Below, in pieces: positions 28,201 to 29,903 of a stretch of 64,000 bases of DNA. Source of the DNA: Schmidtea polychroa (Eukaryota); contig CM097885.1 of NCBI GenBank assembly GCA_044892525.1, forward strand, positions 86,552,001 through 86,616,000, written 5' to 3'. Both the position numbers and the translations under genes were made by a program. The notes beneath the pieces are model-generated. The model did not search any database. It saw only the letters and a list, made by a program, of their open reading frames with translations, and had not been told where the DNA came from. Each line of letters starts with the position of its first letter. The stretch's first letter is position 1.

Positions 28201-29903
28201 TTTAAATTTACAAGAGGTAAGTCATTTGCATAATTTTTGATAAAAGCGCAAATAAGGAGTTTGCTCACAAGGCCAGATCCGCGGATAACATGCAGCCAAT
28301 CACCAATATTAATTACACGGCCAGGTGTTTCCTTGATGTCATTGATTTTATTTCGTAGATTCCTACAAATAGGCAAGTAATTTTCCATACCAGACAGAGT
28401 CGTTGGATTTATGATGTAGTACTCATCTGTGGTATAATCAATGATCAACAGAATTTCCTGATATTTTGGGGGTGCAACGATGGCGAATATTATTTGTGCT
28501 CTGATGAGACCGTCATAGTTTAAAAAATCATTTAGATGTTGGGTGCAATCTTCAAGGATTGCAGAGCACATCGTTGCATTCAATAAAATGAAATTTGAAT
28601 TTAGTTTTAAGCTATCGAAATACTTGGAAAGTATTTCTTCATTTATTTTGAAATTTATTGAGTTTAAATTTTTGCAGATCTCATTTGCCTGTTGGATTTT
28701 AGATGATTTTAGGAACTCACTGGTACTTGTATGAGATATTGTTTTCCCGAAAATTACTCTTTCAATCAGTTCAATAAAGGCACAAGCAAAGAGAAGTGAG
28801 TCAGCAGATGGAATGGAAGTATAATCGATGTTGTGATTGGGATCAAATAAGACTTTCTTGTGTGTAATTAAGAATCTATTGAGATAATCGGTCATGTTTT
28901 CTCCTATTCCGAAAAGTCTCTCAGTTACAGTTTTGTTGTGGAAATTAAACATGTAACTGTGTCCCTTAACAAGTGAAAAAAGATAAAGACTCCAATTTGT
29001 GTCGTTTGGAATGACGCTGATGACAAGGTCTATTCCAGAAAATTGTCTGAACGTCACATTTTCCCTAATAAATGTGTCGTTCTGTGCAATGACATTGGAA
29101 GTCAGTTCAGGAGAAATGACAGATATGTTGGTTCTCCTTTCAAAATATTTGCTAAGTAAACTCGAGATGCAGGAGTTCTGTTCCAGGAGAAAGGCCTGGT
29201 TCTGGGTAGGCTTTTTCTTAACTCCATTGCGCTTGATTTCCTCCATAAATTTTGGTAGGCCGCCCCCCGAGCTTTTTTGGTGTTTGTGTTGTGAAGAAAT
29301 TTGTGATTGATGGACCTCCTTTCTAATTATTTCGACAAAACAGTCAGGAAAGCTATGCCATACTCCGCTGATCATCATGGCGTATGCGCAGATGAACGGT
29401 CCACAATCATAATTGTTAGTCTGATAGCCAAAGTTTTCATGTGGATGGAACGTCATGGCTGCTTTTAGATTGAAAACATGATTCAAAGATCTTGTTATTT
29501 GAAGAGCATGCGTTTTATTGGAAAGATTATGCCGATACTCAAAGATTGGGTCAATAAAGTAGGAAGTCAAAGAATTCTTACAATATACAAACAAGATCCA
29601 GTGAGTTTTGTCAATATTAAGGGGGCATAAAATTATTTGCGCTTTAAAAATCTCTTCCGGAATCGGAAAAATGTCCTCATTAGGATTAGCGCGTAATATT
29701 TCAACAATGAAACATTTAAGTGGCGCAAAGTTTGGGTCACTGATGTGATTTTCAAGGTAGTGGTCGATATCATCATCAGTGAACCAGATTTTTGGATCAC
29801 GCGCTGGATTATCACTATTCTGAACAGTTTTGATATAATTTATTGTGCTGTCTGCATCAGTCTCGTTAGAGATTGGGGCAGATATTGGGACTGATGCAGG
29901 CAC
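25293..29903 (-). CDS. E4 ORF2, 1536 aa: Ulp1-like x3, RT, CCHC, RLE
   Basis: THWILF...YQTNNYDCG; YADD; CRLCHTEDETMSHVIQSC; RVDLMITD...LVDMKCP. Confidence 0.95.
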   Translation of the reverse strand: MPASVPISAPISNETDADSTINYIKTVQNSDNPARDPKIWFTDDDIDHYLENHISDPNFAPLKCFIVEILRANPNEDIFPIPEEIFKAQIILCPLNIDKTHWILFVYCKNSLTSYFIDPIFEYRHNLSNKTHALQITRSLNHVFNLKAAMTFHPHENFGYQTNNYDCGPFICAYAMMISGVWHSFPDCFVEIIRKEVHQSQISSQHKHQKSSGGGLPKFMEEIKRNGVKKKPTQNQAFLLEQNSCISSLLSKYFERRTNISVISPELTSNVIAQNDTFIRENVTFRQFSGIDLVISVIPNDTNWSLYLFSLVKGHSYMFNFHNKTVTERLFGIGENMTDYLNRFLITHKKVLFDPNHNIDYTSIPSADSLLFACAFIELIERVIFGKTISHTSTSEFLKSSKIQQANEICKNLNSINFKINEEILSKYFDSLKLNSNFILLNATMCSAILEDCTQHLNDFLNYDGLIRAQIIFAIVAPPKYQEILLIIDYTTDEYYIINPTTLSGMENYLPICRNLRNKINDIKETPGRVINIGDWLHVIRGSGLVSKLLICAFIKNYANDLPLVNLNLNEIGNTINSLLPIIKELQKGQNTMLTKIVKKKEVNLKLEQRLTKVEELLQQISNISINEIIEIINEQFPNRLNSTHKPYLGNKKRPAKLNKAKLIAKFMTDMKWTVNKIINNTDVSIRPTFQNIVLNFLIKSPFQGNWTKTFSFCKRSQQKLDLEPFSELEVIYELKRADNTSPGIDGIQYRDLLLLDPKGKLLCFLFNKIIFDKIIPDNWKSFKTLLIPKPDKDGKYEDCSSWRPIALLSVIYKLFASCLASRLTYWINKNDLLHVGQKGGSRHDGCVEHNSILSSALEHSKYSKNSPIAIAWLDIKDAFGSVPHEYMWSLLRFVGVSEEFAFILQMLYSDTSTFYSCGPILTPKIPIKQGVKQGCPISMILFALAINPVLEAVSRSECEPFMIGESPVKILAYADDIALVAKSANDLQKITNIAVKTAAEIGFVYRPEKCGYLQLPKTQSESEIVINDIKIKKLLPNEFYQYLGVPVGEETDQSPYDTLKKAVSDTRKLADSDLLGWQKLKAYKVFVHSRLIFAFRTREIKTSALSKSSENKNLSVNITSELRNCFRKMMFLPNHSEVSYFYNSTENGGANCVDLLDEYHTQTITHFFRLFTSKCDLARKINIDSLKFVTGPRLGIKEPTLQESLDWLNGRESKPYHSGKKTRFQRARIAVAFFEKTHNIKISFIVTNHEPSLYITTTMRGTCILTSDLRKTTSKVLHMALCDSYLSKWEKSCISNFIASAVKLSPKINKAIFRSDLSEFAWNFIHRARTNTLSINAKPNNKGEKRLCRLCHTEDETMSHVIQSCKVHLTLGAERHNDCLKLITSNLKQNSNLLIVVDHVCSLVPNSKERVDLMITDMTRKKIFLVDMKCPCDSLNNFENVDLLNLQKYDSLKKQIQVVKPDFQVELDTCIIGSLGSFPPQTPNILLKIGVKQTELKGLLKECAISNITHSARRWYFHKTGILVDPDKTQLFNNN

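Follow-up and report, generated by a model that had tools for sequence, protein, structure and literature searches.

An Ulp1-like protease domain and two predicted dead copies of it in a 5S rDNA-inserted retrotransposon of Schmidtea polychroa and its relatives

A stretch of 64,000 nucleotides from Schmidtea polychroa (GenBank assembly GCA_044892525.1, contig CM097885.1, positions 86,552,001 to 86,616,000; called the window below and numbered from its first letter) contains copies of a retrotransposon without long terminal repeats (non-LTR) whose second open reading frame (ORF2) begins, according to an earlier note on this DNA, with one intact and two catalytically dead copies of an Ulp1/SENP-like protease. 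The question raised by this locus is whether the second and third segments really are copies of a protease and, if so, why a retrotransposon would keep them in front of its reverse transcriptase (RT). We find that the three domains, D1 to D3, form a repeat that exceeds chance, that D2 and D3 are under purifying selection, and that the arrangement marks a whole clade of elements. The module lies where the earlier note had placed it, at 28240..29790, although these limits clip about 25 amino acids (aa) off D3 (coordinates of all features are given in Table 1).

By its sequence D1 is a C48 protease with an intact triad and is putatively active. Pfam Peptidase_C48 (PF02902) matches it with E 2.9e-8 and 34.2 bits against a cut-off of 20.7, and the His-Asp-Cys that had been read from the motifs is complete (H103, 29601-29603; D120, 29550-29552; C169, 29403-29405), together with the oxyanion residue Q163 and the tryptophans W42 and W104. 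Among the relatives that cover each site, the Asp and the Cys are present in 16/16 and the His in 14/14; these and the triad counts below exclude L081, a duplicate of subfamily B, and L082, a broken copy. When models were compared with 48,161 PDB representatives, D1 aligned to yeast Ulp1 (1euv) over 172 residues with Z 17.4 and a root-mean-square deviation (rmsd) of 2.9. The folds nearest to the module are Ulp1, SENP5 and NEDP1, and sequence identity to SENPs is only 7-19%.

The Pfam scan recognized D1 only, with no C48 match in the four isolated D2/D3 pieces scanned. In profile-profile comparisons (HHalign) with 9-13 sequences per domain, D1-D2 scored 41.0 (E 5e-6), D1-D3 33.0 (E 1.3e-4) and D2-D3 40.8 (E 5e-6), against a highest score of 22.3 across 40 column shuffles per domain pair; with only five sequences HHalign was not significant (E 0.007-0.014). 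AlphaFold predicts the same helix and strand order three times, with a predicted local distance difference test score (pLDDT) of 78 for D1-D3 and 85 for D2-D3. These profiles indicate that the three-domain repeat exceeds chance and that D2 and D3 are paralogues of D1, in agreement with the repeated motif order first noticed by eye. The repeated AQII, one of the motifs then cited, is indeed found at aa 90 and 471 but is absent as a literal repeat in sister families and is weak evidence on its own. The D3 model aligns to 1euv over 170 residues (Z 13.8, rmsd 3.5) and to SENP5 (9gnn) with Z 14.9, and the D2 model aligns to the SUMO protease 5lnb over 163 residues (Z 10.7, rmsd 4.1, model range 1-171). 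A C48/CE-clan fold is thus supported for D2 and D3 by prediction, where a different fold would have counted against the earlier reading. Active single-copy Ulp domains from other elements of genome G000 score up to 26 bits with the D2 profile, and feature matches in the ESM Atlas (0.90-0.95), one set of which has Peptidase_C48 in 17% of its members, are taken as a lead only.

Residue registers in D2 and D3 were fixed from the spacing and from where helices end in the models. At the triad positions of D2 there is neither His (0/14) nor Cys (0/14), and the Cys position is usually occupied by Pro or Asn. In D3 the Cys is likewise absent (0/15), Ser stands in its place in 14/15, and His and Asn are found in 7/15 and 11/15, respectively. 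The proposed loss of both His and Cys therefore holds for the window copies, with Q/R484 at the D3 His position, and loss of Cys holds everywhere, whereas the D3 His survives in those 7/15 relatives. The former active site of D3 carries a strongly conserved H-x-x-R-G-S-G-L-x-S loop (S545-G546 in 15/15, H540 in 13/15), its oxyanion Gln is replaced by Arg543, and one D3 model shows the old nucleophile site covered by an additional turn of helix. In Ulp1, the equivalents of W42 and W104 form a Gly-Gly tunnel. D3 is without both in 15/15 (K421 and E485 here; K/R/T/N/L at 421 and E/D/Q/V/L/N/T/R at 485), and D2 retains only the second, in 11/14.

Between subfamilies A and B of the window, the ratio of nonsynonymous to synonymous differences (pN/pS) is 0.23 for D1, 0.42 (0.33-0.54) for D2, 0.21 (0.15-0.28) for D3 and 0.42 for the linker before the RT, with synonymous sites near saturation. 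Seven other family pairs gave 0.12-0.54 for D2 and 0.16-0.70 for D3, and the intervals that include 1 are of low divergence (A/H for D2, Ser/Phe for D3). For the Met and Arg families omega is 0.04, 0.07 and 0.10 in D1, D2 and D3. D2 and D3 are under purifying selection. With the nucleophile lost and A/B ratios well away from 1, retention of the two copies as pseudo-proteases, as the earlier note had supposed, is supported.

How far does the arrangement extend? A D1-D3 query of G000 returned 998 candidates, and 79/79 of those scored are 97-100% identical. Triple-domain sister families occupy tRNA arrays for Met, Asn, Thr, Ala, Ser, Phe, Cys and Arg in G000, and an interrupted tRNA gene is seen at the 3' junction for Met, Asn, Thr, Ser, Cys and Arg, that of Ala not being resolved. 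Three-domain proteins are also present in databases (P0002-4, P0006, P0009, P0015; 17-54% identity per domain), as are proteins with D1 and D3 only (P0010, P0011) and proteins with D1 and one dead domain that has Ser-Gly at the Cys-Gly position (P0013, P0018). The dead domain of P0018 matches D1 (E 2.5e-6), D2 (2e-15) and D3 (1e-5); P0019 was dropped as a relative, its D3 comparison giving E 0.44. An RT tree of 19 rows, which holds only unnamed relatives, one with LIN9_SM junctions among them, and omits 1 of 20 (L072a, no RT motif match), groups the 14 multi-domain elements (100/99) apart from 5 single-protease elements and places P0018 as sister to the other 13 (100/99). From sequence comparison, then, the triplication marks a whole clade with two-domain relatives, which fits a series of one, two and three domains formed by duplication with later loss of D2 in P0011. 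The sister-family loci sampled in tandem tRNA gene arrays are L061-L067, L075, L080 and L083. The Met and Asn elements are about 99% identical and lie in different tRNA arrays, and both break before TAGCGCG.

The element itself has an RT followed by a CCHC knuckle and a restriction-like endonuclease (RLE), with no apurinic endonuclease (APE), which is the signature of an RLE non-LTR retrotransposon. As the best available assignment we put it close to the R5/LIN lineage of flatworms in the NeSL clade, because the single-protease relative L071 in G000 has the printed 28S junctions of LIN9_SM and because the 3' end of our element, AATAAA-CTTTTAC, is similar to those shown for LIN25_SM in S6 Fig of the same paper (both in the accessible part of PMC4640811). 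The window is a head-to-tail array on the minus strand of elements of 8-9 kb each, comprising subfamilies A and B and A/B mosaics, in which ORF1 codes for about 930-980 aa and ORF2 for 1538-1555 aa. Rfam finds 13 5S rRNA genes in the window, 8/13 interrupted at the same site. All 3' junctions (8/8) fall at 5S nt 22, where the gene resumes after the 3' end of the element, and the family-A 5' junction leaves the 5S spacer after 106 nt. The 5' junctions are family-specific: A copies exit the 5S spacer after 106-123 nt (23775-23780, 32757-32774 and equivalents), and B copies join 4 nt before the 5S start. Because of these positions the 5' portion of the target 5S gene is missing in every insertion.

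The linker between D1 and D2 offers a candidate substrate for D1. Gly-Gly occurs 41-51 aa after the catalytic Cys in 16/17 multi-domain proteins, with 0.011 expected per such span of residues, and there are only 4 other Gly-Gly pairs in 10,964 N-terminal residues. The linker is predicted to be disordered (pLDDT <50), and the single-protease elements displayed have no Gly-Gly at the corresponding place. In two independent recombinants D1 and the Gly-Gly linker have moved jointly while D2-D3 differ, with identities of 94% (D1), 92% (linker) and 43% (D2) for Thr/Ala and of 98, 100 and 49% for B/H. Complex prediction for D1 and a 34-aa Gly-Gly linker was uninformative, with a score of 0.00 in two runs made without alignments. 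An enzyme of the SUMO-protease family from an unrelated virus, African swine fever virus (ASFV) pS273R, cuts its own polyproteins at Gly-Gly-Xaa (accessible text of PMC8728581). We lean towards the view that D1 cleaves after Gly-Gly.

ORF1 and ORF2 share one frame and are separated by a single TGA, which is found at 50/50 junctions in the window and in fetched loci, many of them near-identical and representing about six lineages. The stem-loop that follows has z scores of -4.25 (A) and -3.8 (B) and of -2.3 to -5.7 in nine other copies, and 11 pairs of its 13-bp stem are kept in 10/10 rows. Four-fold codons within the first 24 codons are identical across six families in 8/8 cases, compared with 8/173 in the rest of ORF2, and a search of G000 with the stem pattern gave 560 matches, its reversed control 0. 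In family A the first in-frame ATG is at aa 152, beyond H103 and D120. Judged from protein, the two arms stay 12 codons apart in P0002-4, and P0003 (V to D and T to S) and P0006 (S to P and D to G) show, by hand inspection, changes in both arms that would compensate each other; no DNA of distant relatives turned up in two metagenome scans, which so gave no view of compensatory base changes. In the single-protease relatives L070, L072, L074 and L073 (tRNA-Lys and 28S arrays), the TGA either lies at the conserved Trp of the protease, with CTA or CTC next to it, or is located upstream and precedes CAA-CCA. These are three different readthrough-type contexts within one lineage. CTA/CTC and CAA-CCA are among the contexts given for readthrough, and elsewhere UGA readthrough is stimulated by 3' stem-loops and 5' adenines (both in the available part of PMC3159437). 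The junction thus has the features of a readthrough site, namely a conserved in-frame stop, 3' structure and synonymous constraint, and an ORF1-ORF2 fusion is probably made by stop-codon readthrough. Among the joints listed in contigs of four sequencing runs, none removes the TGA as an intron; one run, of uncertain type and strand (RNA is guessed), covers 27/30 bins. Selenocysteine at the TGA was considered and appears unlikely, the TGA lying in a linker.

If D2 and D3 are retained without catalysis, what might they replace? R2-type elements have zinc-finger and Myb domains at the N-terminus of the RT-endonuclease. By a simple motif scan, one or two zinc-finger motifs adjoin the protease in 4/4 single-protease elements, and none were found in ORF1 and ORF2 aa 1-800 of 9/10 triple elements, the tenth having one chance-like match inside the D1 catalytic helix. 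Net charge in five families is -4 to 0 for D2 and -5 to -2 for D3. This neutral to slightly acidic charge suits protein binding better than nucleic-acid binding, so that RNA binding, one of the roles first proposed, is not favored.

Our best overall explanation, for which we judge the case evenly balanced, is as follows. Two successive tandem duplications of a NeSL-clade Ulp1-like protease would have produced the three domains, and the extra copies would have lost the catalytic Cys and been retained as folded binding modules. Most ribosomes would stop at the TGA and make ORF1 only, and a minority, aided by the stem-loop, would read through to give an ORF1-D1-D2-D3-RT-RLE polyprotein. D1 would cut this after the linker Gly-Gly, in the way that viral proteases of the CE clan process their polyproteins, and free a D2-D3-RT-RLE enzyme, in which D2-D3 would form an N-terminal accessory module in place of the zinc fingers of single-protease relatives. 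The remodelled pocket of D2-D3 would probably serve to bind a protein, which could be ORF1 or a host factor present at RNA polymerase III (Pol III) gene arrays. Because D3 is without both tunnel tryptophans, some new partner is more likely than SUMO-tail binding of the classical kind. We would wager neither for nor against such a binding or targeting role. The more specific proposal, that retrovirus-like expression is combined with replacement of DNA-reading zinc fingers by a pair of pseudo-proteases that tether the RT-endonuclease to a Pol III-array host factor, is a doubtful one. If true, the tethering would explain how the clade could radiate over 5S and at least eight tRNA types whose target sequences have little in common, the Ulp1 domain of NeSL-clade elements, long without an explanation, would gain a testable substrate, and a structured readthrough signal would be added to non-LTR retrotransposons.

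Several observations weigh against this explanation. The D2 fold is backed by a single structural row confined to D2, plus profile and secondary-structure evidence, and at least one lineage (P0010, P0011) does without D2. L070, a single-protease element with zinc fingers, targets tRNA-Lys; therefore Pol III gene targeting does not need D2-D3. P0011 has Gly-Ser-Gly instead of Gly-Gly, and flexible linkers often contain glycine runs that have nothing to do with cleavage. The RT tree is midpoint-rooted and has long branches, among them that of P0018 (1.61). Covariation in the DNA of the stem is 0/16 pairs, the stem being invariant, and families swap this cassette by recombination, which inflates its apparent conservation. 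The invariant GTG at codon 3 could also be a reinitiation start. ORF2 would then be made separately, either by termination-reinitiation two codons past the TGA or from an RNA that is trans-spliced or internally initiated; the stem would aid the start and the three-domain module would be the true N-terminus, with or without Gly-Gly cleavage. The GTG is present in 6/6 families, and P0002, P0003 and P0006 start MPAS/MPAP, though gene callers write M for GTG. AUG-independent translation of ORF2 is known for L1 and SART1. However, reinitiation needs neither the shared frame nor the constancy of the stop, the GTG is itself paired within the stem, and in the single-protease relatives the TGA sits inside the protease at the conserved Trp, where only readthrough works. 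Trans-spliced leaders ending in AUG are a flatworm feature, but no in-frame AG acceptor is common to all six families and this candidate was rejected. We regard separate expression of ORF2 as rather unlikely.

A tentative alternative, which we rate as possible but on the unlikely side, is that D1 acts on host proteins as a deSUMOylase, deNEDDylase or deubiquitinase and that D2/D3 are traps for SUMO or other ubiquitin-like substrates, whose binding (chains, or modified silencing or repair factors) would position the RT complex or feed D1. The closest folds agree with this, the Cys to Ser change of D3 is the one engineered in the yeast Ulp1 C580S SUMO trap (available part of PMC3216068), Ulp1 domains of DNA transposons have been proposed to act on the ubiquitin/SUMO pathway (available part of PMC2836005), and trapping is compatible with self-cleavage by D1. 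Set against it are the loss of both Trp equivalents from D3, the helical turn over the nucleophile site in one model, the Pro or Asn usual at the Cys position of D2, and the low identity to SENPs. D2/D3 could instead be purely structural spacers or stabilising lobes, kept because they must fold within an essential polyprotein: D2 is constrained as loosely as the pre-RT linker (0.54 for Thr/Ala), it has been lost in P0010/P0011, and the A/H and Ser/Phe intervals reach 1. D3, however, is constrained like D1, its most conserved residues lie at the former active-site loop, and 7/7 G000 families aligned, as well as relatives at 20-35% identity, retain about 1 kb of additional coding sequence; we regard a spacer role as improbable. 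Most improbable of all is that D3 is not dead in every lineage and has been converted to a Ser-His-Asn hydrolase or an acyl-binding site. His-Asn-Ser does occupy the triad positions in 4/15 rows, and His540 and Ser545 are additional conserved residues, but the His is absent in window families A and B and in six more rows, and Arg543 stands at the oxyanion position.

The nearest known systems compare with these elements as follows. Mutsu of the Tx1 clade targets 5S as well and has an APE endonuclease and no Ulp module. The Dada-5S DNA transposons (accessible part of PMC8869645) share the 5S target and differ in having a DDE transposase and no Ulp module. R5/LIN elements (R5; LIN9_SM, LIN24_SM and LIN26_SM at 28S; LIN15_SM at tRNA-Arg; LIN25_SM at tRNA-Glu) are alike in the RT, the C-terminal knuckle and RLE and in insertion into multicopy RNA genes; the accessible part of PMC4640811 does not give 5S rRNA among their targets and describes no protease, triplication or in-frame stop for them, and our tRNA-Arg family interrupts its target gene about 4 nt upstream of where LIN15_SM does. 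NeSL and Utopia-1_TSP are known to carry a single Ulp1 domain (same source). NeSL-1, its Caenorhabditis relatives and Utopia-1_TSP are described with one protease domain and with spliced-leader exon or U2 snRNA targets, no dead copies are reported for them, and the N-terminal zinc finger or fingers of the Utopia/NeSL type are not seen in the triple elements here. The Ulp1/SENP/NEDP1 fold (CE clan) resembles that of all three domains, and D2/D3 differ from the engineered C580S trap as natural tandem pseudo-enzymes without the Trp tunnel. Murine leukemia virus (MuLV) gag-pol, from an unrelated element, likewise makes its RT by in-frame readthrough with 3' RNA structure (accessible parts of PMC3159437 and PMC5009743); relative to it and to ASFV pS273R, both features would here be combined in one non-LTR retrotransposon. 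In the literature covered, which leaves most subscription papers and Repbase outside, no description was found, for these elements, of dead Ulp domains in tandem, of readthrough or of processing at Gly-Gly, and the families themselves may already be catalogued in Repbase. Ulp1 domains also occur in Ginger and Mutator transposons with a function that is only proposed (available part of PMC2836005), a guess for which this clade offers a concrete candidate substrate in the Gly-Gly beside the enzyme. The clade further provides a natural series of one, two and three domains, with Pfam-invisible pseudo-enzymes in the place that target-recognition domains usually take in RLE elements. Elements of the RLE type are under development as site-specific gene-insertion tools, and a family that retargets among 5S and many tRNA arrays while lacking zinc fingers is relevant to how the choice of target is encoded.

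Table 1. Positions in the window of the family-A element, its coding features and its target.
Feature	Position	Strand	Basis or remarks
Full-length family-A RLE non-LTR retrotransposon, about 8.1 kb, within a 307-bp 5S rDNA array	24675..32774	minus	3' and 5' junctions, Rfam 5S matches
Interrupted 5S rRNA gene, nt 22-119, insertion target	24577..24674	minus	Rfam and junctions
ORF1, 931 aa from ATG	29913..32705	minus	begins with an Asn-rich low-complexity stretch; about 500 aa form a conserved core; lacks a zinc finger
One in-frame TGA separating ORF1 from ORF2, candidate readthrough codon	29910..29912	minus	7/7 window junctions
Conserved stem-loop from 6 nt 3' of TGA	29845..29903	minus	contains in-frame GTG 29901-29903
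ORF2-bearing open frame	25293-29909	minus	holds all motifs quoted in the earlier note
D1, Ulp1/SENP-like (C48), aa 41-205	29295..29789	minus	Pfam, structure match, triad conservation
Gly-Gly-Gly, aa 215-217, D1-D2 linker, candidate self-cleavage site	29259..29267	minus	
D2, predicted C48-fold copy, dead, aa 241-400	28710..29189	minus	triad positions N305, N322, S371
D3, predicted C48-fold copy, dead, aa 413-581	28167..28673	minus	triad positions Q484, N501, S549
Reverse transcriptase domain, YADD at aa 976	26766..27542	minus	Pfam RVT_1 E 4e-26
C-terminal CCHC knuckle and restriction-like endonuclease region	25350..25859	minus	positions of RHN..RVD..DMK..KYD, which we take to be the RLE motifs; zf-RVT under cut-off

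The ORF1 core (29913-31700) has 37-60% identity among families and invariant motifs; no Pfam, database or Atlas match, homolog or known family was found for ORF1. One B copy has a premature TAA in ORF1 (22457-22459, minus strand) where its sister copy has AAA, and the variable 5' part of B-type ORF1 contains 114-bp tandem repeats (14378-14844, 22765-23295 and 44522-45052).

Recombination and deletion have rearranged several copies. A mosaic element (7736-12358, minus strand) joins B-type ORF1 and D1 to A-type D2-D3 and pre-RT linker and a B-type C-terminus, and A and B have been homogenised in the RT core (95-98% nt identity), with flanks at 50-80%. Two copies have in-frame internal deletions (33597-36347 and 46440-49475, minus strand), one joining the ORF1 start to the pre-RT region and the other having lost most of D2, D3 and the linker; their junctions were unique among the 40 scored of 197 and 116 candidates. 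They say little on D2-D3, since pre-RT sequence was also removed. In L075 a recombinant ORF2 runs through D1 and part of D2 and then through part of D1, D2 and D3 again, and L067 has a 2273-codon frame from which the TGA has been deleted together with the start of D1.

A search of G000 for a host SUMO gene, with 150 of 828 candidates scored, did not recover one and returned ubiquitin-like repeats instead. In the same scored set ubiquitin-like domains are many, often in pairs 228 bp apart, within dispersed long open frames of up to about 1400 codons, which suggests ubiquitin-bearing mobile elements. Arrays in C19, C23 and C37 of G000, with a period of about 19-23 kb, each hold several Peptidase_C48 fragments, and L044-L050 in these arrays are remnants of single-protease elements.

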